Part shown: positions 2,529-61,449 of the stretch, piece by piece
Layout: each line of letters starts with the position of its first letter
Position numbering within the stretch: position 1 is the stretch's first letter
Virus record (IMG/VR): IMGVR_UViG_3300005573_000064
Location: 53,565-117,564 of that record
Origin: a virus
Reading direction: 5' to 3' (one strand)
DNA: 64,000 nt
The notes under the pieces: model-generated
Told to the model about the DNA's origin: nothing
What the model saw: the letters and a program-made list of their open reading frames with translations, nothing else
Database searches by the model: none
Position numbers and translations under genes: made by a program

Positions 2529-5500
2529 CTACCCGAGTATTTTATGGACAACCTTTCCACGCTCTCTTTCCCTACCACTCCTATCCTCCGTCAAAGTCTG
2601 GCTTCTGTTGGTGGGGCTTGTAGTATGCATGTCAATGGCCGTATGAATGGCGTTAATGACATGCATGGGATTAAGAGTGCCGCCAATTTTTCCTCTAACT
2701 CTTATTCTCACTCTTTGGTGTTGAATATCCGCACGATGCTCCGTTTCCACCTTCCTCTCCTTGTCCTCCTTTTCCTTGGCCTCTTCATACTCACCTTCAT
2801 CCTTGGTGTTAACCGCATTAAGAGTCGCCATTATGACAAGGGCCGCCTTGGCCACTCCGGCCGCCACTTGGAATCGTTTGTTATGAAGGACGGCCCGTAT
2901 GCCCGATGATAACGCATCACTGGAGAGCTCCGTCCGGCCGGCCAATACGCCAACCAGGTCTCTGGCCTTGCCTGACACCCTGGCCCATGTATTGGCTCCC
3001 AAAAGCGCGGCTCTGGCCACAGAAGGCCCTTTTGATTCGGCATTTTTAATCTCCTGGTTAAGTGCAGCCACCACTGTCTTGGCCGGGGACATCCCAGCCC
3101 CCGGTCCCACCACGCCTACCGGAGATGGCACCGCAGGGTTGGCGTTGGTTCCGAAGTATATCTCTGCGGCCCTTTGAAGGTAGCCTGACAGCCTAAGATT
3201 GGCTCTGGCCTTTTGCAAAATCTCCTCGGCAGTTCCCGAGCGTAGGAAATCCTCGAAGCTTTGATGCCCCGAGGAGGACGGGACTATGGCCTTGCCTATA
3301 TCCACTAGCTCATCCTTGACTCTCACCGGGCGGATGACGCCACGGGATACGCCTTTGATGGCTTCGTCAAGATGCCTCCACTTTAGGAGCCTTTCTATTT
3401 CATCCTTCTGGTACATGTTCAGAAAAGAGGTGGAGGTCCCAAGCAAAGAGTCGCTGTATTCGCGCTCCGCGTTCCTTAGCAGCATGGAGGCCAGGACACC
3501 ATAACCCTCCTTTTCGTTTGAGGCCAGGTAACTCTGAGGGGTCTTGCCCAGAACCGAAGGGGCCCACTTGTTGTTCTTGAACATCTTCGGAATAAAAATA
3601 CTGCTGAATTTGAGCTGCTCCACCTTGCGTGCAGGGTTGGCCTCCCAGAGTCTGGCCTCCTCGCTCCTTATGAAGCCCTCCCTGACGTTCCTTGAGGAGA
3701 ACAGCCTCCACAGGCCCTGCTCATACTTGCGTATTTTTTCAATATTGGCTGCAGTGTCGGTGTATCCTTTCTCCTCCAAGGTTTTCCATAGTGGAACGCC
3801 TATGAACTCCTGGTTGAGAGATGGGTTGGTTCTGAGCTGCTCCTCCGCGTGTGTCTTGACGTATTCCCGTATTCTTCCGGCCATTTCCGAAACATCGCTT
3901 CCCAGATCCGATTTCGCGGGCATTTGTGCCGCTTCGGCCAGAAGGGCGGAGATAGTCTTGTTCTCAAAGGTGAATCCGGTGGAAATAAGATGAGAGGCGA
4001 TTCTCCCTCTCTTGGAGGTCTTATTCCCCGCGAATCTTCCGCTTTCAAGAAACTCCAGGGCCTCCCTTCTTGACAACCCCATGGAGGTTAGGAATGTGGC
4101 CCCCTTGTTTCTGTCCCCGCTAAACTTTCGTCTGAACGTTTGAAGCGCGAACTCCTCTATGTCATACCGGGTTTGGCCTACGTCTCCCACCCTTATTCTG
4201 TAGGAGTTGGTTATCCTCGGGGTTATTGTCCACTCGTGAAACGGCTTGACCACCTTCTCGGGAGTCGCGGGAAACCCTCTTCTGGCAAGAGCCTCTCCGC
4301 CTATACCATAGAGTTCACGATTTCTCCTATGTATGAGAAGTTCGGCCTCGTACCGGTCTATGTTGCCGGAGCGTATCTCCTCGCTGATTTTATCAAAGAA
4401 CGGTTTGTCATAAACCGAATATTGCTTGTCATACCAATACTTGCCCTCGACATATTGCTTCGCCATTCGGGGATCGTTTATAAGATAGTTTCTTATCCAC
4501 CTTATCCTTTCCGTCCCCTCCGCCACATTCTCCCCGTTTTCCACCATTCGCTCAAGATCCGCGACTTTGTCCAGTAACTCCTTGCGAGGCATGTTGGCGT
4601 ACTCCATTCGCCAATCAATAACTTCATGAACAAACGGAGAGTTGCCGCCCCTTTCCCCGGTGTATAGTCTGTGTAACTGTCTTTGGAATAGGTCCAGGGC
4701 TATCCTGTCGCTTTCAGCATTGGCTTGCTCCGGGGACAGGCCCGAAGGCTTAAGATTTTGAAGAATCACGGAAAGGTCAAGCGCGTCATTGGCTCTTATG
4801 ACTCTTGGGGCTTCACCCGACACATCGTTGACATGCAGGTAATACTCATGCCCCCCGGTGAGTTCATTCTCTGCGGAAAAGACACCCTCAACCTTGACCA
4901 TCCTATTGGATATGGGCAGATTGATGGGGTTGCCGAACGCATCCTTGCTTCGAGTGGGGCGCCCGTACATAATCGGATTGGTGATGTCATCGGACGAGAG
5001 CCTTTGCCACTCGTTCGGGTTAATACCCAAGTAATCCCCGGCTCCGGCCTCGAACACCTTGGCCGTGACAGCCGCATCATAAGCCGCTCCGTGCAGTTGA
5101 GCCTCCTCAATTTGTAACCCTCTGCCCAGGGCGGCATGCTCCAGGGATTGAAACCCTCCCTTGGGGTTCGCACCCTGCTCAAGAAACAGAACGTTTATGG
5201 CCCTATTTTCATTGGCCTCCTTGAATATGGCGGATGCTTTCTCCATTTCATCCGCCATAACCGTCTGTCCCTCCCCCTTTAGCCGTTTGGCGTGAGAGGC
5301 GGCCATGGCGGATAGTTTTCCAAGGTCAACGTCCTCATTGTATATCAGAACATGCAAATCCTTGTGCTTATCCAAGAGTTGAGACGCTTCGGACAGCATG
5401 CTGACCTCAGCCTCATCGGGGTTACCCATAGTAAGATCCGTAGGGGAGGATGGAAGGTTTCTCATGGTCTTCCATTTTAACCACGACCTGTCAAGAATGT

Positions 5501-41028: not shown

Positions 41029-41052
41029 ATATTCCTCTTACAGGTAGCTCAC

Positions 41053-41185
41053 GTCCCTCGAGTTACAAGTAACCCGCGTCCCTCGAGTTGCAATCAACTC
41101 GCGTCCCTCGAATTACAAGTAATTCGAGTCTCCGTGAGTTATAACTAACTCACGGGTCCCTCGAGTTACAAGTAACTCGAGTCTC
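41053..41185. repeat. Five tandem ~25-bp units, each with the palindrome GAGTTAC-AA-GTAACTC
   Basis: gtccctcgagttacaagtaacccgc / gtccctcgagttgcaatcaactcgc / gtccctcgaattacaagtaattcga and two further units. Confidence 0.9.
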
Positions 41186-42536: not shown

Positions 42537-42720
42537 TGAGTTACAAGTAACCCACAGGATGGGGATATAAAGCGAAGTTACCGTGTCTCACTTTAATTAT
42601 AGCACATATAATCTCACCTCATGAGTCATAACTAACTCATGGAGGCGTGAGTTACAAGTAACTCACGGGTCCCTCGAATTACAAGTAATTCGCGTCCCTC
42701 GAGTTACAAGTAACTCGAGC
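42537..42720. repeat. Second cluster of GAGTTACAAGTAACTC palindromes (about five copies)
   Basis: One copy at ~42538 and a tandem run at 42616-42720; the last copy supplies the stop codon of 42704..43366. Confidence 0.88.
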
Positions 42721-43366
42721 CCCTGAATTTCCTCAAACGTCTTATCGGAACCACCAGGCATATGTCCCTCTCCAAAGGCTTTCCGGGCAAGCTCTCCTTA
42801 AGATTGAGATGCTTGTAGCTAACCCTCCCGACCTTCAGGAACTCCCCCACGCTCATCCACCCGAGAAGCGAAGCCTCTAGAATCCTGAACCTCACATTCG
42901 AACCCCTAAGTTGTTCCAAGCCGTAGGATTTATAAAGTAATTCTCCCATCTCAAGCCCATTACAAGATGACGAACAATCACCGGAGAGGTGGCCGGGCTT
43001 ATTCTCAATCTTCGGAGCCACGCCAATCCTGACCGCAACGACAACGGAGTTAAGTCCCGCCCTAAGCAGACACACCTTTGGTATCCACACACTGTCAAGC
43101 TGAGGCCCTATCGACTTGCAAACAACCCCTCTTCCATCCGGAAGAACCCCATCCACATTCGACCCATCCCCCTTTCCTCCGTAAGCGTTGAAGTCCATTG
43201 TCGCTCCCAGCATCAGTTCGACAAGAAGCTCCCCCACCGCTCCCATGAAATGCTTTTCCAAAGGCGTCCTTCCCCTGCATACCGTCTGGTTCGTCTTCGC
43301 CCCGTTCCTCTCCAAGGCTATGCGCAAAGCTCTTTCCTCTATTTGTTTTATTTTGTCAATTTCCAT
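42704..43366 (-). CDS. Hypothetical protein, PD-(D/E)xK nuclease-like
   Basis: GAVGELLV..GDG..VDG..VCKS pattern; TTGCTT-18-TATAAT upstream (43374-43403). Confidence 0.45.
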   Translation of the reverse strand: MEIDKIKQIEERALRIALERNGAKTNQTVCRGRTPLEKHFMGAVGELLVELMLGATMDFNAYGGKGDGSNVDGVLPDGRGVVCKSIGPQLDSVWIPKVCLLRAGLNSVVVAVRIGVAPKIENKPGHLSGDCSSSCNGLEMGELLYKSYGLEQLRGSNVRFRILEASLLGWMSVGEFLKVGRVSYKHLNLKESLPGKPLERDICLVVPIRRLRKFRGSSYL

Positions 43367-43468
43367 AATTCCAATTATACCTAGTTTTCCATGGAAAAAG
43401 CAACCCGTAAGTTAGTTATAACTTACGCCTCCGTGAGATTTACGCAAGTAATTCTCACGTCTTGACGC

Positions 43469-43630
43469 TTCAAATCTCAAGTTCAGTACTTCAAACCTGG
43501 AATTCAGCTTTTCAAATCCAGAATTCAGTACTTCAAAATCTCAAGTTCAGCCCTTTAAATCTGGAATTCAAATCCTGAAGTCAGTCCTTAAAATCTGGAA
43601 TTCAGTACTTTAAAGCCGGAATTCAGTACT
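43469..43630. repeat. Degenerate ~21-bp tandem repeat (about 7-8 units) at the strand-switch point
   Basis: Consensus approximately CTTCAAATCTGGAATTCAGTA. Confidence 0.85.
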
Positions 43631-56968: not shown

Positions 56969-57025
56969 CCCGAATTTTTACTAAAAAGACCGAATTTTTG
57001 GATTCGGAGAAAGGAAAAAAGAGAA

Positions 57026-57217
57026 ATGCTTGACTTTGACAAACTAAAAGCCCGAATAGGGCGCGAGAACAAACTGCTTGGGAGGGTTGGAAGAAAAAAT
57101 CAGCGGCTCGAGGCGCTTACGGAGGAACTGAAGGCCGCGATAGCGGACCTTGAGAGGAACATAGCCGAGGCCGAGGAGGCTATAAGGGAGTACGTAAGCT
57201 ATGAGAGTGAGAATTAG
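57026..57217 (+). CDS. Coiled-coil protein (63 aa)
   Basis: Heptad pattern; GAAAGGA RBS. Confidence 0.65.
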   Translation: MLDFDKLKARIGRENKLLGRVGRKNQRLEALTEELKAAIADLERNIAEAEEAIREYVSYESEN

Positions 57218-57419
57218 GCGAATTCCAGTGTTTCCGAACACAAACATGCCGATTTATCGGAGGCCTATCGCTTGCATACGGAATGCCGAGGGCGTCCGGG
57301 CTTTAATCCTTGCGGGATTCGGCTGGAGAGTGGATATTGGGAACGAAAAGCACTTTGTGATTCAGGAGGATATGGAGAGGCGTGCCGAAATCATACTCGG
57401 CATCCTCTCCGGTGAATAA
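57201..57419 (+). CDS. Hypothetical protein (72 aa)
   Basis: Overlaps the previous ORF; GGGAG RBS. Confidence 0.55.
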   Translation: MRVRIRRIPVFPNTNMPIYRRPIACIRNAEGVRALILAGFGWRVDIGNEKHFVIQEDMERRAEIILGILSGE

Positions 57420-57472
57420 CTTAAGGCGACTGAGAGCCTTTTATGAAAATTCGAGAAAGGAGGTGAGGCTTT

Positions 57473-57877
57473 ATGCCGGTTATGAAACCGATAAAGGTGG
57501 CCGAGAAGTTCTCCGAGGATGGAAATAGGAGAACGGAATATTATGCCGTCCGGTATTTGGACGGTTGGAAGATTCAAAAAATAATTACAAAAAGGAAGGA
57601 GGATGTGAGTTACAAGTCCTACGAGGACGCGGTGGACGTCATCCAGGCTATGGGCCGAAACCTGACAATGTTCGAGTTCATAGGTGACTTCACCAATGAA
57701 TATGGGCGAACCGTGCCTATTTACGCGACACCGATAGATGATGGAATGTGGGGCGTGGAGTACGGAAGAGCGGGGACTATTGAGAGGGAGTCAATGGCTT
57801 TTGAAAGTCTGGATGCGGTAAGAGAGTGGGCCGAGTGGAAGTATGCGAAGAGTAATTTTCGGTCTTACACTCCCTGA
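57473..57877 (+). CDS. Hypothetical protein, family B copy 2
   Basis: AAAGGAGGTG RBS; paralog of 55101..55517. Confidence 0.8.
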   Translation: MPVMKPIKVAEKFSEDGNRRTEYYAVRYLDGWKIQKIITKRKEDVSYKSYEDAVDVIQAMGRNLTMFEFIGDFTNEYGRTVPIYATPIDDGMWGVEYGRAGTIERESMAFESLDAVREWAEWKYAKSNFRSYTP

Positions 57878-57898
57878 CACATTACGAAAGAGACGATA

Positions 57899-58606
57899 AT
57901 GACTAGGAAGGCGACAGCGGCCCTCATTCCCGTCAGTGAGAATATGTTAATAGATATTATTAATAATCACCGGGGGAGTGGCCGGGCTCATTGCGAGAAC
58001 GAGGTGCCGCTTGATTTGACGAGACATGACCTGAGCGGCCTTGATTTGTCGGGTTTGGACCTGAGAAAATGCATTCTGTACGGGTGCAACCTAACTGGAA
58101 GCGGTCTCAGGGGGTCTAATTTGTATAGGGCGGACCTAAGGAAGGTTACCGCGCCTGGTGCAATCTTTGACGGTGCGGTTCTGGTAGGGGCGAAGCTTGA
58201 CGGAGCCATGCTTCGGGAGGCGTCCTTCAGAAACGCGAAGCTGACGAAGGCGGTGCTGACGGGTGCGGTTCTGTGTGACGCGGTTCTTGACGGGGCGTGC
58301 ATGTTCAAAAGCCGGCTGAGAAAAGCGGACCTCACCCGCGCCAGCTTGAAGGGGGCGGACATGTCGTTTTCCGACATAATCGGAGCCATGTTCGCAAACG
58401 CCATCCTTGACGGCTCCGTTATGCTTGACGTGCGCGCCTATCATGCCGACTTCACCCGCGCCAGCCTGAGAAACGTGATGCTTTCATCGAATAGCTATTG
58501 CTGCCCCAATATCGAGACGGCCGACTTTACGGGCGCTGAGATTGAGGGCTTCGTTGACGGCTTCGCGGAAACTGTTTTGAGGAAGGCGTGCGCATTACCT
58601 AAGTAA
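57899..58606 (+). CDS. Pentapeptide repeat protein
   Basis: A(D/N)Lxx repeats throughout. Confidence 0.92.
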   Translation: MTRKATAALIPVSENMLIDIINNHRGSGRAHCENEVPLDLTRHDLSGLDLSGLDLRKCILYGCNLTGSGLRGSNLYRADLRKVTAPGAIFDGAVLVGAKLDGAMLREASFRNAKLTKAVLTGAVLCDAVLDGACMFKSRLRKADLTRASLKGADMSFSDIIGAMFANAILDGSVMLDVRAYHADFTRASLRNVMLSSNSYCCPNIETADFTGAEIEGFVDGFAETVLRKACALPK

Positions 58607-59077
58607 TGTAGCACGGACCGAGTATGTCATGCATATTTACTAAGAGTAATGGCATACACCGGAGGGATGGCCGGGCATAGGGGTAAACAGCCGAAGCGCG
58701 TTCCCGGGAAGCCATTCCCCGCGCGCGATTACTCAAGTAATTAGGGGTGCCAAGCTCAGCAATAAACGGGGTGCATTACTTAAGTAATGTGCAACCAAGC
58801 TCAGCCGTAAGTGGATGCATTCGCGCGCGATTTTCTAAGCGGAAAACGGGCTCGGCTGGACGCGCCTAGGCCCGACAAAGACGCGGCTTATTTTGGCCTA
58901 TTGCGGCCCGTACTCCCCGGTGTAGGTTTGCTCTTCCCGTAGGGAAGAACAAACCGTTATCCCTAGTAATGTGTAACCAAGCTCATCAATAAGCGAGGCA
59001 AACCTCACGGGGACATGCCTGAAGGTATGCCCCCCGGCCTCACTCCCCCGGTGATAAAAAATATTTTTTTCACGGGC

Positions 59078-59106
59078 TTGCACATCCATGAAAAGTATGC
59101 TATAAT
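59078..59106 (+). promoter_or_regulatory. Sigma70-type promoter
   Basis: TTGCAC-17 bp-TATAAT with extended TG and an AT-rich UP-like region; flanked by a GCTTGCAC/GTGCAAGC inverted repeat. Confidence 0.8.
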
Positions 59107-59111
59107 GTATG

Positions 59112-59310
59112 TGCAAGCTGAAAAATGCTTGCGGCCGATAAGCCCGATCCGATCAGATGGTTAGATGCCGAGGCCCACTAACGGAATTCTGGTTGCGTAG
59201 GACTTAGCCCGACATGAAAAACGGGCTGAACGAATGCGGCCTACCACCCGTTAGAGGGGGACACGCTTGGCATGGTGGTGAGGACAGGATCCTTAGGGGG
59301 GGATTATGCC
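59112..59310 (+). ncRNA. Putative rod-shaped structured RNA (~200 nt)
   Basis: Nested pairings GATCC/GGATC, ATGCCGAG/CTTGGCAT, CTAACGG/CCGTTAG, GTAGG/CCTAC, AGCCCG/CGGGCT. Confidence 0.55.
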
Positions 59311-59560
59311 CAAACTGCGTCCGAAGCAGGGGGATAGCGAAGTTAAACGCTACGCGATCTACGCTCAGCCTTCGGCTTCGCGTCAATCTCAGCCTTCGGC
59401 TTCGATTGATTAATAAATAATAAATTAAAATAAAATAAAAGGTTTAAGTACGTGGGCGTCACGTACTTAAAGAAACGGGGTTGGCACGGGACCCCGCTAG
59501 ACAGGGAGGCTTGAAACATAGCCTCCCTTTCGCATATGTGACATCATGAAAGGACAGAAA

Positions 59561-59980
59561 ATGGAGAACGATAACGGGAAGGATTGCGCCATGTTATGGG
59601 TTGACGGGGCGTGTTCCGGCAACCCCGGGCCCGGAGGATGGGCCGCGCTTGCAATCATTGGCGGAAGAGAGGTGACCGCAAAGGGAAGCGCGCCAGAGAC
59701 AACCAATAATAGAATGGAGCTTATGGCGCTGCTTCAAGGCCTTAAACTGGTTCCCAAAGAGTTGCCGGTGGTGGTGAAAACGGACAGTGCGTATATCATC
59801 ACCTGCACAAGGCACTGCAAGGAGCCGGACTGGATTGCAGCCCACAAGAACCCCGGGCTAGTATTGAAAATAGCCAGAGAGCTTGAGGGAAGAAAGGTTC
59901 GGATTGAAAAGGTGAAGGCTCATAACGGAGTCCTCATGAACGAGACCGTTGACAGAATGGCCCGTTCCATGATTAGATAG
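59561..59980 (+). CDS. rnhA: Ribonuclease HI
   Basis: VDGACSGNPGPGGW, TTNNRMEL, TDSAY, KVKAH, NETVDRMA. Confidence 0.95.
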   Translation: MENDNGKDCAMLWVDGACSGNPGPGGWAALAIIGGREVTAKGSAPETTNNRMELMALLQGLKLVPKELPVVVKTDSAYIITCTRHCKEPDWIAAHKNPGLVLKIARELEGRKVRIEKVKAHNGVLMNETVDRMARSMIR

Positions 59981-59994
59981 TAACGGAGGCCGAT

Positions 59995-60357
59995 ATGGAC
60001 GATGAATTGAACATATCCGTATTTGAAATAACGGGCGATTCGCATTGCGTGACTTCAAGTGCCGGCCAAAAGGTTTACGACCGACTGGCGCTCGCCCTGA
60101 GAAACAAGCGAAACGTCACGCTCTCATTCTGCAATGTAACCGTACTCACCCCGGTGTTTCTTAATACGGCAATCGGCCAGTTGTACGGGAAATTCGACAG
60201 AGAGCAAATACGTTCAATGCTCAAGGTCCGGGACTTTCCACCCGATGACCTTGCGCTACTGAAGCGCGTGGTTGACAACGCTACGCAATATTTCAGCGGT
60301 CTGCGTAAATTTCCACGGACCGAGGGTGAGGATTCGAAGCGCGAGACTTCAAACTAA
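59995..60357 (+). CDS. STAS-like (DUF4325) protein
   Basis: GQKVYD..VTLSF.NV..LTPVFLNTAIGQLYG. Confidence 0.8.
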   Translation: MDDELNISVFEITGDSHCVTSSAGQKVYDRLALALRNKRNVTLSFCNVTVLTPVFLNTAIGQLYGKFDREQIRSMLKVRDFPPDDLALLKRVVDNATQYFSGLRKFPRTEGEDSKRETSN

Positions 60358-60364
60358 TTTGCAA

Positions 60365-60394
60365 TTGACATCGAACGGAATGTCAGGGTATAAT
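60365..60394 (+). promoter_or_regulatory. Sigma70-type promoter
   Basis: TTGACA-18 bp-TATAAT; contains a TGACA/TGTCA inverted repeat. Confidence 0.75.
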
Positions 60395-60426
60395 CAAGGC
60401 AATAAAGGCTTTCGGAGGAGAATCGC

Positions 60427-61020
60427 ATGGAACCTAACGAAACTATCGAGGATTTAAAGGATCAGTATCGTTCCATACTGGCCAGCGAGGTTGACAATAA
60501 CTGGGTGCGCGGTGACATCGCCACCATTGTGACTTCGCTGCACGATGCGGAGATCGAGAAGAATGGAAAGTCGGGCATTATTGACGACTTTCTGGAGTCA
60601 ACCGGGGAGAGTCGCAGCGCGTTCTCCCAGTATCGGTGGGTTGCCGGAATATTCAATGACGACAGCCTGCGAGCCCTTCCCGTAACCTGGACCCACTACC
60701 GCGTTTGCGCTGGTTTGGAGGACAGGGACGAGGCCATCAAGTGGCTTATTAAATCCAGCGATGAGGGGTGGAGTTGCTCAAGACTTATCGAGGAGCTCAA
60801 AGGCGCCAAGCTGAACAAGGCCATCGATGAAGGCCTAAGGTGTTCCCAATGCGACAAGTCGGTGACCAAGGAGATATCCGTTTCGCTATCAATCAATCGC
60901 AAGGGCAGGAGACCCGAGAAGAGAACATTCTGTTCGATTAACTGCGCCTGGCTTCACCTTTCGGAACTCCATCAGGAGGAGCTGGCCGCCAACTCCTCGG
61001 TGGAGATATTTGCAACATAA
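60427..61020 (+). CDS. Putative DNA-binding protein: DUF1016/YhcG-N-like helical domain plus C-terminal Zn finger
   Basis: VTWTHYR..WL...EGWSCSRL; CSQC...FCSINC. Confidence 0.55.
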   Translation: MEPNETIEDLKDQYRSILASEVDNNWVRGDIATIVTSLHDAEIEKNGKSGIIDDFLESTGESRSAFSQYRWVAGIFNDDSLRALPVTWTHYRVCAGLEDRDEAIKWLIKSSDEGWSCSRLIEELKGAKLNKAIDEGLRCSQCDKSVTKEISVSLSINRKGRRPEKRTFCSINCAWLHLSELHQEELAANSSVEIFAT

Positions 61021-61093
61021 CGTAAGTAAATAGCATGTAACATAACCACGGCCGAGGCTAACCACCCTCGGCTTTTTGGACGGAGGATTTTAT

Positions 61094-61312
61094 ATGAAAA
61101 ACGAAGCCGAGTTGGAAAAGGTTTACGCCACAACTCAAAGGTTGTGCAAGACCAGGAAGATGGACTACATAGGCATCCAACTTATGAATGGAACCCCTAT
61201 GTTTTACACCTCGGACATTGCAAGGAAGGAGGTGGGAGACCTGGTGAAGGTCCCCAAGGACACTCCCTGGTCCGAAGTGCTTGAGCATCTTAACAATAGC
61301 ACCCTCGAGTAA
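61094..61312 (+). CDS. Hypothetical protein (72 aa)
   Basis: GGAGG RBS before MKNEAE; follows a terminator at ~61052-61077. Confidence 0.65.
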   Translation: MKNEAELEKVYATTQRLCKTRKMDYIGIQLMNGTPMFYTSDIARKEVGDLVKVPKDTPWSEVLEHLNNSTLE

Positions 61313-61449
61313 ATGGGAAGTAATGGTTGGAGGCGGTAAGGTTAACAAGTATTTGTTCTAAAAGGGGATAGCTTTGGCTACCCCTGTTTTTTATAGTTAG
61401 CAAAAATAAAGATCCGCTTATGAGAAAAATTAGGAAAGGAGTGCGAGAA

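Follow-up and report, generated by a model that had tools for sequence, protein, structure and literature searches.

A promoter with operator-like repeats and a putative hairpin-dense leader upstream of an RNase HI gene in an uncultured hot-spring phage

What is the function of the largest gene-free stretch of a phage contig, when that stretch ends at a gene for RNase HI? The contig (117,564 bp) comes from an uncultured hot-spring phage and is 65% complete, with ~35% of the genome missing. Intergenic DNA makes up ~6% of it, and the largest gene-free island, 58607-59560, immediately precedes rnhA. Positions are those of the window, i.e., the whole 64,000-nt stretch that was analysed, except where the genome is named. 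The original prediction had assembled a promoter, a folded RNA, a G-tract, two short repeats, an A/T tract, an inverted repeat and rnhA into an RNA-primed replication origin, and had offered a 6S-like decoy of RNA polymerase as the alternative. Our own reading, in which belief and doubt are about evenly balanced, is that the island serves the control of transcription, as an operator-flanked promoter followed by a ~450-nt, hairpin-dense untranslated leader that feeds rnhA.

No coding capacity was found in the island. No convincing ORF was present between 58607 and 59560 under any of three genetic codes (table 11, TAG=Q or TGA=W). The ORF at 59214-59420 scored as non-coding (codon score -0.119, versus 0.241 +/- 0.099 for in-frame gene pieces), and the score of 0.109 obtained for the minus-strand ORF at 58898-59116 lies inside the spread of other spurious minus-strand ORFs in this region (-0.09 to 0.13). 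Neither a tRNA nor a tmRNA was detected in the island, and no Rfam family was found there at the gathering score. When 1.2 kb (58500-59700) was searched at E up to 10, Rfam returned mir-19, Glutamine-II and ALIL, all three at chance level, and nothing else. The features that were recognized are collected in Table 1.

Table 1. Features of the gene-free island and of the genes that follow it, in window coordinates
Feature	Position	Strand	Remarks
14-bp palindrome ATTACYYRAGTAAT, three copies	58594-58607, 58728-58741, 58775-58788		upstream half of the island
A/T run, 17 bp, pure	59054-59070	+	just 5' of the -35, UP-element-like position
Inverted repeat GCTTGCACATCCAT / ATGTATGTGCAAGC	59076-59118		brackets the -35 and the predicted RNA start; operator-like
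Sigma-70-type promoter	59078-59106	+	-35 TTGCAC/TGCACA; extended -10 TGCTATAAT at 59098-59106
5'-end hairpin, 6 bp	59113-59132	+	GCAAGC-8 nt-GCUUGC; in MFE and centroid folds, 37 and 65 C
Rod RNA, predicted	59133-59310	+	outer stem, 14/13 internal loop, core hairpin
Two hairpins with the 17-mers	59337-59381, 59382-59410	+	one 17-mer CTCAGCCTTCGGCTTCG in each
A/T tract, 32 bp, pure	59409-59440		plus strand A-rich; no pairs predicted in the RNA
Perfect palindrome, 12-bp arms	59443-59454 / 59460-59471	-	100% complementary, 5-nt loop, tail CCTTTTATTT...
Leader hairpins, predicted	59476-59496, 59503-59528	+	UUUCGCAUAU comes after the second hairpin
rnhA (RNase HI)	59561-59980	+	start probably at 59561; upstream ATG at 59546
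DUF4325 gene, STAS-like	59995-60357	+	probably in the same transcription unit as rnhA
Next consensus promoter	60365-60394	+	after the DUF4325 gene

The near-consensus promoter of the original prediction was recovered at its place: TGCACA, a 16-nt spacer and TATAAT, with TG ahead of the -10, give 10/12 matches, and the RNA would start at ~59112-59114. Sites that score at least 10/12 number 15 in the contig; only three of them are intergenic, and two of these three, at 59079 and 60365, both face downstream genes. The extended -10 9-mer has five copies in the contig, with three further copies intergenic. From 59106 to the start of rnhA the scan revealed no further promoter-like site, and on the minus strand of 58400-60500 none of at least 9/12. 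Within that interval two promoter-like sites were counted versus 1.9 in shuffled sequences, and two terminator-like sites versus 2.5; the sites are notable for their quality and position, not for their number. The promoter appears host-like, because it resembles those of the 6S genes of the likely host, where TTGnCA, a ~17-nt spacer and a TG-extended -10 were found upstream in two of three candidate genomes. The A/T run in front of it is tied third-longest in the contig. The inverted repeat that brackets it has 14-nt arms, 93% complementary and 15 nt apart, and the 14-bp palindrome recurs at 15 places in the contig (script search, up to 2 substitutions). Both repeats look operator-like and may serve as operators.

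The proposed nested rod with its 14/13-nt bubble is also borne out by the centroid fold. In 59110-59330 a GAUCC/GGAUC helix is followed by the internal loop (59151-59164 / 59274-59286) and then by a core hairpin (59165-59273), which itself contains a 6/6 internal loop (59185-59190 / 59242-59247). With an MFE of -81.2 kcal/mol, 59110-59330 has a z of -2.29; its fold was equalled by 5/200 shuffles. For the core, the plus strand gave a z of -3.24 (3/200 shuffles) versus -1.54 for the minus strand (15/200), and in sliding windows the values were -4.33 and -1.19, respectively. The structure signal is hence plus-strand-specific, and the z-scores of the rod are moderate. The core hairpin survives folding at 65 C; the outer closing stem is less robust and shifts with fold context and temperature. 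The G7 run at 59296-59302 is present, but it did not hold up as a notable element: there are four such runs in the contig, both strands counted, and this one is paired in the predicted fold, within the 3' arm of the outer stem. No second copy of the rod was found in the contig, and it matched no Rfam family.

The segment 3' of the rod, 59330-59545, folded with a z of -5.45, and none of 200 shuffles was as good. The two repeats noticed at 59364 and 59388 are identical 17-mers (59364-59380 and 59388-59404), 24 bp apart, that adjoin the A/T tract; the chance expectation for the pair is 0.04, and 0/100 shuffles gave two matches. The pairing context of the 17-mer differs between its two hairpins. 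Identical 17-mers that fold differently suggest that their sequence itself is recognized, and a plain leader has no need of this. On the minus strand they can form the predicted GAA-loop mini-hairpins, but during R-loop formation this template strand would lie in the RNA-DNA hybrid and not be free. The A/T tract, likewise as predicted, is the longest of 20 runs of at least 12 in the 117,564 bp (next 20, 17 and 17), and its 60-nt window is tied for the lowest GC (0.22). The tract may serve to unwind the DNA, or may supply the T-run of a minus-strand terminator. The inverted repeat beyond it is present, as predicted, and is perfect; with the T-run it has the sequence of a textbook minus-strand intrinsic terminator, which weakens the chain of steps proposed for an origin.

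On the plus strand no terminator-like site was seen in the scan between the promoter and rnhA; UUUCGCAUAU, after the last hairpin, is at most an attenuator or a weak terminator. Canonical plus-strand terminators are common in other parts of the block, with 44 sites versus 22.1 +/- 4.5 expected. The product of rnhA matched Pfam RNase_H (PF00075) with an E of 3.8e-25, and its alignment to Escherichia coli RNase HI (E 1e-19) brought D, E, D, H and D into register. The RNase HI gene named in the original prediction thus appears to be intact, with family and catalytic residues kept. The gene after the DUF4325 gene (60427-61020) encodes a 197-aa protein; over 110 of its first 130 residues the predicted fold resembles the DNA-binding domain of ParB/Noc/KorB (Z 10.7, rmsd 2.9), a match that lies within the chance range for helical domains and has a Foldseek E of just 0.044. 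A candidate site-specific DNA binder is therefore at hand next door, although this fold is not that of an initiator family. No Pfam or PHROG replication family was found among the neighbour genes of the island.

We propose that the promoter, which is of the host sigma-70 type and bracketed by an operator-like inverted repeat, fires rightward. The transcript would carry, in this order, the 5' hairpin, the rod, the two 17-mer hairpins, the unpaired A-rich tract and three more hairpins, and would read through into rnhA and then into the DUF4325 gene. Because a good fold is formed only on the plus strand, the rod would act as RNA, whether by stabilising the transcript, by directing its processing or by binding a protein. 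The palindrome with its T-run would halt leftward (antisense) transcription. Some observations do not sit well with such a leader. A pure A/T stretch of 32 bp far exceeds what a terminator needs. No minus-strand gene or promoter-like site that needs the terminator was found to its right, where the sole minus-strand ORF (61058-61348) scored -0.014, i.e., non-coding, and the overlapping plus-strand ORF 0.317. Finally, the phage encodes its own RNA polymerase, for which homologues were found, so that rnhA may be transcribed otherwise.

Relatives of the island were then sought. Comparison with phage records by blastn produced none, exact-pattern scans gave 0 hits in viral contigs and 0 in metagenome contigs, and two neighbouring proteins used as queries returned no loci. 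The island had no match in two relative phages (G004 and G005), nothing meaningful in 160 rnhA loci (blastn and nhmmer), and in three candidate host genomes only matches of up to 34 nt (E at least 0.04). Since the rod has no homologue anywhere that was searched, its fold is without covariation support. Relatives of the RNase H reach at most 43% identity in viral contigs and 45% in metagenome contigs; in a set of 5.8 billion proteins there was one cluster at 99%, followed by values of up to 47%. Two contigs, of 964 nt and 1,933 nt, carry a near-identical RNase H. The nearest relative phage has an RNA polymerase 49% identical to that of our phage and shares 43 of 102 ORFs. In its 122 kb it has neither rnhA nor a comparable island: no RNase_H was found, the longest A/T run is 19, and no gene-free gap exceeds 317 nt except two of 833 and 526 nt near the contig start.

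Other rnhA loci were compared. The median upstream gap was 34 nt (n=141); 20 of the 160 loci were excluded, 19 of them for being shorter than 3,500 nt. The script took the match start as position 3001, an assumption that fails for a few loci. Two loci with long gaps (L002 and L029) gave z-scores of -1.04 and -1.80 and are not clearly structured, and Rfam recognized only two tRNAs, in locus L003. With this median and these two gaps, a recurrent module of an RNA before rnhA was rejected.

Natural variation was available from other runs. Run X2 is identical to the island wherever it covers it. Run X3 is ~96% identical and covers just 59020-59170 and 59459 onward; here 10 of the 12 stem pairs of the palindrome are kept, the loop and the A/T tract differ, and 59111 G>A falls in the inverted repeat at 59076-59118, with no compensating change listed. 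The interval 59401-59445 was masked as a repeat, so that breaks in it prove nothing. Among the three runs found with the phage, none was listed as RNA, and contigs cannot show RNA ends. The host probably belongs to the Chthonomonadales (Armatimonadota). None of the 90 spacers from MAG arrays matched the phage over more than 17 nt, which leaves a single chimeric-looking contig as the basis of the host link.

Several known systems resemble parts of the island. The early mRNA of phage T7, with its RNase III sites, and the lambda N leader are long structured early leaders with double-stranded processing hairpins. In them as in our locus, transcription from strong host-type promoters would pass through untranslated sequence, with hairpins that contain internal loops, ahead of the first gene; our locus differs in its identical 17-mers and its 32-nt A-rich tract. 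In ColE1, RNA II is a folded primer RNA with a G-rich segment that is cut by RNase H in a persistent hybrid and extended by DNA polymerase I; the antisense RNA I, whose promoter is its own, overlaps the 5' end of the primer. The idea of such a primer is common to both, but no RNAI was found by Rfam at E up to 10, no minus-strand promoter-like site of at least 9/12 was found in 58400-60500, the G7 is ordinary, and the two have no sequence relationship. At lambda ori a palindrome lies on the far side of the AT-rich stretch. In a T4-type origin the RNA of a persistent R-loop primes the leading strand. The RNase H of T4 itself belongs to another protein family than RNase HI, and the oriF promoter of T4 reportedly serves a downstream gene too. 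T4 origins combine a promoter with an unwinding element rich in A+T; priming goes through an R-loop that RNase H processes, and minimal origins take up ~100 bp, the unwinding element directly following the promoter (PMC3016281). In our locus, too, transcription from a promoter with a sigma-70-type -10 would enter A+T-rich DNA, and RNase H is the proposed trimmer of the primer; in contrast to T4, ~296 nt of folded RNA separate promoter and tract, versus ~100 bp for the whole origin (PMC3016281). In lambda ori, which is activated by transcription from pR, four iterons of 18 bp adjoin an AT-rich sequence of 38 bp (PMC3349717). In our locus direct repeats likewise adjoin an A/T stretch (32 versus 38 bp) 3' of a strong promoter, but there are only two repeats and no recognisable initiator gene, and the site lies outside genes (PMC3349717).

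How do other explanations compare with the leader? That the island is a replication origin, transcription-primed or initiator-driven, seems doubtful to us, and either form could coexist with a leader role. In the transcription-primed form, RNA from the 59078 promoter would hybridise in the A/T tract and be trimmed by the phage RNase HI, as at T4 oriF/oriG. In the initiator-driven form the 17-mers would be iterons, the tract the unwinding element and the promoter a source of transcriptional activation, as at lambda ori. By sequence, the prerequisites of the first form appear to be present, i.e., a promoter, an A/T tract in its unit, abutting repeats and an intact RNase HI gene ~120 nt downstream. 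That the tract is the contig's longest, is low in GC, is flanked by the 17-mers and a perfect palindrome, and lies in the largest gene-free stretch fits either form, and T4 (PMC3016281) and lambda (PMC3349717) provide precedents. The GC skew proposed as a check, however, spoke against an origin: it is positive on both sides of the island without a turn, and the cumulative minimum lies at window ~43.4 kb, at a strand switch. Real tandem arrays of 5 to 8 units occur in that ~43.4 kb region and at genome 1849-2095, versus two repeats here. The tract lies ~296 nt after the predicted RNA start, while an entire minimal T4 origin measures ~100 bp (PMC3016281). The G7 is paired and ordinary, the minus-strand mini-hairpins would sit in the hybrid, and the palindrome reads as a plain terminator. 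The nearest relative phage lacks both an RNase_H and a long A/T run, and among the other rnhA loci the upstream A/T run exceeds the local background in just 19 of 141. Since no DNA polymerase, DnaB helicase or Prim-Pol gene is recognisable in the 117.5-kb contig (65% complete), there is no replication module to which an origin could be anchored. Sequence alone cannot show that replication starts at the island. We regard as unlikely the full chain in which a host-polymerase transcript through the rod hybridises in the 32 bp that would melt most readily in the genome, is trimmed by the phage's own RNase HI and primes DNA synthesis at a phage origin where the 17-mers and the palindrome position proteins.

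The rod could also be released as a stand-alone, trans-acting small RNA of ~200 nt that acts on the host, possibly as a 6S-like decoy whose 14/13 loop mimics an open promoter. Length and topology (closing stem, internal loop and long terminal hairpin in the centroid fold) would fit 6S RNA (RF00013), which binds the sigma-70 holoenzyme and is a template for product RNA; the structure is plus-strand-specific, and a strong host-type promoter stands in a phage with its own RNA polymerase. Against this, the 6S covariance model found nothing in the window at the gathering score or in the 1.2 kb at E up to 10, although it does find 6S in all three candidate host genomes (55.5, 39.8 and 39.1 bits). 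A three-gene model of the host 6S, run on 57000-61000 with filters off, gave at best 5.5 bits, on the palindrome hairpin, and inside the rod just a 0.7-bit, 29-nt piece. In host 6S the 5' half of the bubble comprises ~19 unpaired nt, whereas the outer stem of the rod is short and unstable across contexts, its 3' end is undefined, and no terminator follows it. The 6S identity offered as the alternative in the original prediction found no support in either model, and we judge a small RNA of this kind improbable. A further account is that the island is mostly incidental DNA, with a terminator for leftward transcription, a promoter for rnhA, and a functionless rod and repeats. The minus-strand terminator, a 12-bp stem with a T-rich tail, is a textbook one, 3 to 5 of 200 shuffles match the moderate fold of the rod, no relative conserves the island, and promoter-like and terminator-like sites are as numerous as in shuffles. 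We nevertheless consider this account quite unlikely: chance would hardly produce the identical 17-mers or an A/T run of 32 bp, phages leave little DNA unused and this stretch is the contig's largest without genes, run X2 is identical wherever it covers the island, and 10 of the 12 palindrome stem pairs are kept in run X3.

If the leader reading is true, the island is an element of an ordinary kind, in which an early promoter under regulation makes a structured RNA that is not translated, and would be of some note because this phage lineage is barely sampled. If the island were instead an origin, its coupling to an RNase HI gene of the same phage would be rare, and it would give a handle on the replication of a phage without a recognisable polymerase in 117.5 kb; in the full chain described above, the origin would be compact and bring its own processing enzyme, a type that is not known from phages. 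Under either reading, the 17-mers, the promoter dyad and the 14-bp palindromes stand out as defined sites for assays of binding and transcription.

The largest gene-free stretch of the whole contig (the island) lies between a pentapeptide-repeat gene and rnhA, which encodes an RNase HI. The 117,564-bp IMG/VR virus contig is rated 65% complete, and the window, its final 64 kb, or near-identical sequence is present in DNA runs of three hot-spring metagenome studies. The original prediction closed its series of elements with rnhA, and the Pfam match supports this; in an alignment, the acidic residues and histidine of the phage enzyme line up with their E. coli RNase HI counterparts. The gene was placed from the second ATG because this is the start in database copies of this RNase HI. 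All convincing genes between 55.7 kb and the contig end are on the plus strand. Where ORFs overlap, at 61058-61348, the plus-strand ORF (61076-61312) had a gene-like codon score of 0.317 and the minus-strand ORF one of -0.014, which is not gene-like. Elsewhere in the window, 49674-49994 matches Pfam STIV_B116-like (DUF1874; E 1.3e-13), which fits an AcrIII-1-type ring nuclease.

Features of the island and its surroundings (window coordinates unless stated)
Feature	Coordinates	Strand	Remarks
Pentapeptide-repeat gene	57899-58606		left neighbour of the island
Island	58607-59560		gene-free
Core hairpin of the rod	59165-59273	+	109 nt, 6/6 internal loop; centroid fold
RNase HI gene (rnhA)	59561-59980	+	Pfam RNase_H, E 3.8e-25; right neighbour of the island
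197-aa protein gene	60427-61020	+	behind the 12/12 promoter at 60365
ATTACYYRAGTAAT sites, among others	26478, 46726, 54676, 54701, 58594, 58728, 58775
Tandem arrays at the strand switch	43468-43630, 42649-42724, 41038-41185
Array near the contig start	genome 1849-2095		eight 31-bp units

A near-consensus promoter had been proposed within the island, and a scan recovered it as TGCACA, a 16-nt spacer and TATAAT with a TG extension (10 of 12 matches). Sites with at least 10/12 matches number 15 contig-wide, three of them in intergenic DNA, which makes up ~6% of the contig; two of these three are the island promoter and the 12/12 promoter, and both point toward downstream genes. A 14-nt inverted repeat flanks the -35 element and the predicted start site, and a 17-bp A/T run is located directly upstream of the promoter. 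The exact 9-mer TGCTATAAT has five copies in the contig, and three further copies are in intergenic DNA (window 9690 and 42604, and genome 34188 on the minus strand), within the minus-strand block. It is possible that TGCTATAAT represents an extended -10 promoter class.

The centroid fold of 59110-59330 reproduced the predicted rod and its bubble: a 5-bp helix, a 14/13-nt internal loop (59151-59164 / 59274-59286) and the core hairpin. The z-score was -2.29 for the whole piece, -3.24 for the core hairpin on the plus strand versus -1.54 on the minus strand, and -4.33 versus -1.19 in a sliding-window scan. At 65 °C the core hairpin was kept, and the outer closing stem, G7 included, shifted with context. 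The G7 run is indeed present, but it is one of four in the contig and hence not special. The two 17-mer repeats are identical, as had been noted, and two matches were obtained in none of 100 shuffles; the region 59330-59545 folds with a z-score of -5.45. No ORF spans the gap under table 11, TAG=Q or TGA=W, and a 68-codon ORF crossing the rod had a codon score of -0.119, versus 0.241 ± 0.099 in real reading frames. No tRNA was detected in the island, and Rfam gave no family there at gathering score; with the limit relaxed to E 10, only three chance-level rows appeared, with neither 6S nor RNA I among them. Natural variation was visible in two metagenome runs. One (X2) is identical to the contig wherever the island is covered. 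The other (X3, ~96% identical in rnhA) has one substitution listed (59111 G>A) and, at 59035-59055, four indels of a single base each; in the palindrome, 10 of 12 stem pairs are preserved, while the loop and the A/T tract have changed.

The original prediction read these elements, all of which were confirmed, as an R-loop origin of replication, a reading that is weak in several specifics, that we consider unlikely, and that could coexist with a leader role. The 32-bp pure A/T tract is, as claimed, the longest in the contig (next 20, 17 and 17), and it adjoins the identical direct repeats and the inverted repeat, a perfect palindrome with 12-bp arms, within a strong transcription unit and beside an intact RNase HI gene. 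Such anatomy has precedents: PMC3016281 describes T4 oriF and oriG as combining a promoter with an A+T-rich unwinding element, with R-loop priming and RNase H processing, and PMC3349717 describes a 38-bp AT-rich stretch joined to four 18-bp iterons at lambda ori. However, the A/T tract lies ~296 nt past the predicted RNA start, whereas the entire T4 minimal origin, in that account, spans ~100 bp; the GAA-loop mini-hairpins belong to the template strand, and an R-loop started at the island promoter would occupy that strand; and in a terminator scan the palindrome and T-run read as a textbook minus-strand terminator. GC skew did not turn at 59.4 kb, where it is positive on either side, and the cumulative skew has its minimum at ~43.4 kb, the strand switch. 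True tandem arrays at the strand switch and near the contig start are at least equally origin-like, and are candidates for alternative origin or packaging sites. A 0.23-GC window also falls at the strand switch. DNA polymerase A, DNA polymerase B, DnaB and Prim-Pol were not found in the contig, so that an origin has no replication module as its anchor. That the island is mostly incidental DNA is quite unlikely in our judgement. A module joining a folded RNA, an AT tract and an RNase H did not recur in a sample of 141 other rnhA loci. In one of those loci (L029, 2494-2949), part of the 456-nt gap ahead of another phage's rnhA is tRNA-like, showing a T-arm and an acceptor-like end, and received no Rfam call at gathering score.

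A 6S-like decoy had been offered as the alternative. In a contig of run X1, phage sequence is fused, at 58423 within the pentapeptide gene, to 29 repeat-like letters. This 29-mer recurs as the CRISPR array repeat (up to 36 copies) of three MAGs, of which two bear the label Chthonomonadales or Chthonomonadaceae; this would fit an Armatimonadota host that carries a spacer targeting the phage. None of 90 spacers from these arrays matched the phage, so the link to a Chthonomonadales-type host is suggestive only. The Rfam 6S model detected a 6S gene in all three MAGs (55.5, 39.8 and 39.1 bits; each ~184 nt, the latter two under the Rfam gathering threshold). Each adopts the classic shape, and compensatory changes occur at 11 of 65 pairs. 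In two of the three MAGs, TTGnCA, a ~17-nt spacer and a TG-extended -10 stand upstream of the gene, a layout that matches the island promoter. In these 6S RNAs, the 5′ strand of the bubble has ~19 unpaired nt; the rod has a 14/13 loop. A clade model built from the three genes, run with filters off over 57000-61000, scored at most 5.5 bits, at the palindrome hairpin, with no match across the rod. Membership of the 6S family was rejected on both models, and a functional 6S mimic, though conceivable, has no support. That the rod is a trans-acting small RNA is very unlikely; no plus-strand terminator was listed between the promoter and rnhA.

Five relatives of the phage RNA-polymerase subunit were identified (33-61% identity), and one of them is carried by two nearly identical IMG/VR contigs, G004 (122 kb, 79% complete) and G005. 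G004, the nearest relative among available phages, has 43 of 102 ORFs in common with this contig, most of them belonging to the structural block. It is syntenic there and in the RNA-polymerase operon (35-70% protein identity), and the plus-strand accessory genes are unrelated: among the plus-strand genes right of 43.6 kb, G004 has counterparts only of the 197-aa gene and of the three genes in the polymerase operon. G004 has no RNase_H match, no DNA match to the island and no gene-free gap >317 nt except two near its start (833 and 526 nt); the island is therefore in a variable accessory region. The longest A/T run of G004 is 19. Neither PolA nor PolB was found in it, and 114331-114645 gave a weak DnaB_C-like match (20.4 bits, under cut-off).

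The 197-aa protein has three database relatives plus the G004 homologue, which is located at that contig's strand switch. In its structure model (pLDDT 88.7), residues 1-130 resemble the DNA-binding domain of Spo0J, ParB, Noc and KorB with a Z of 10.7 (rmsd 2.9 over 110 residues), a value that helical domains easily reach; Raf1 is also similar (Z 9.7), and the best Foldseek match had an E of only 0.044. A C-terminal zinc ribbon and an invariant LPVTWTHYR motif were also observed. The 14-bp palindrome ATTACYYRAGTAAT has 15 sites in the contig, three within the island, and its four perfect copies each lie at a gene boundary. This scatter resembles the dispersed operators of a KorB-like regulator, and the modelled fold makes the 197-aa protein a candidate binder of ATTACYYRAGTAAT.

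The simplest reading is a leader feeding rnhA and the DUF4325 gene, because neither a plus-strand terminator nor a promoter-like site other than the island promoter was found before rnhA; elsewhere in the block, canonical plus-strand terminators are abundant (44 sites versus 22.1 expected). Transcription would start near 59113, with a 6-bp terminal hairpin at the 5′ end of the RNA, followed by the rod and by two hairpins containing the 17-mers; beyond an A-rich tract that is left unpaired, another three hairpins would reach the rnhA ribosome-binding site. We judge the chances evenly balanced that the island, from its sequence features, is a regulated promoter whose structured leader of ~450 nt would lead into rnhA and the DUF4325 gene.
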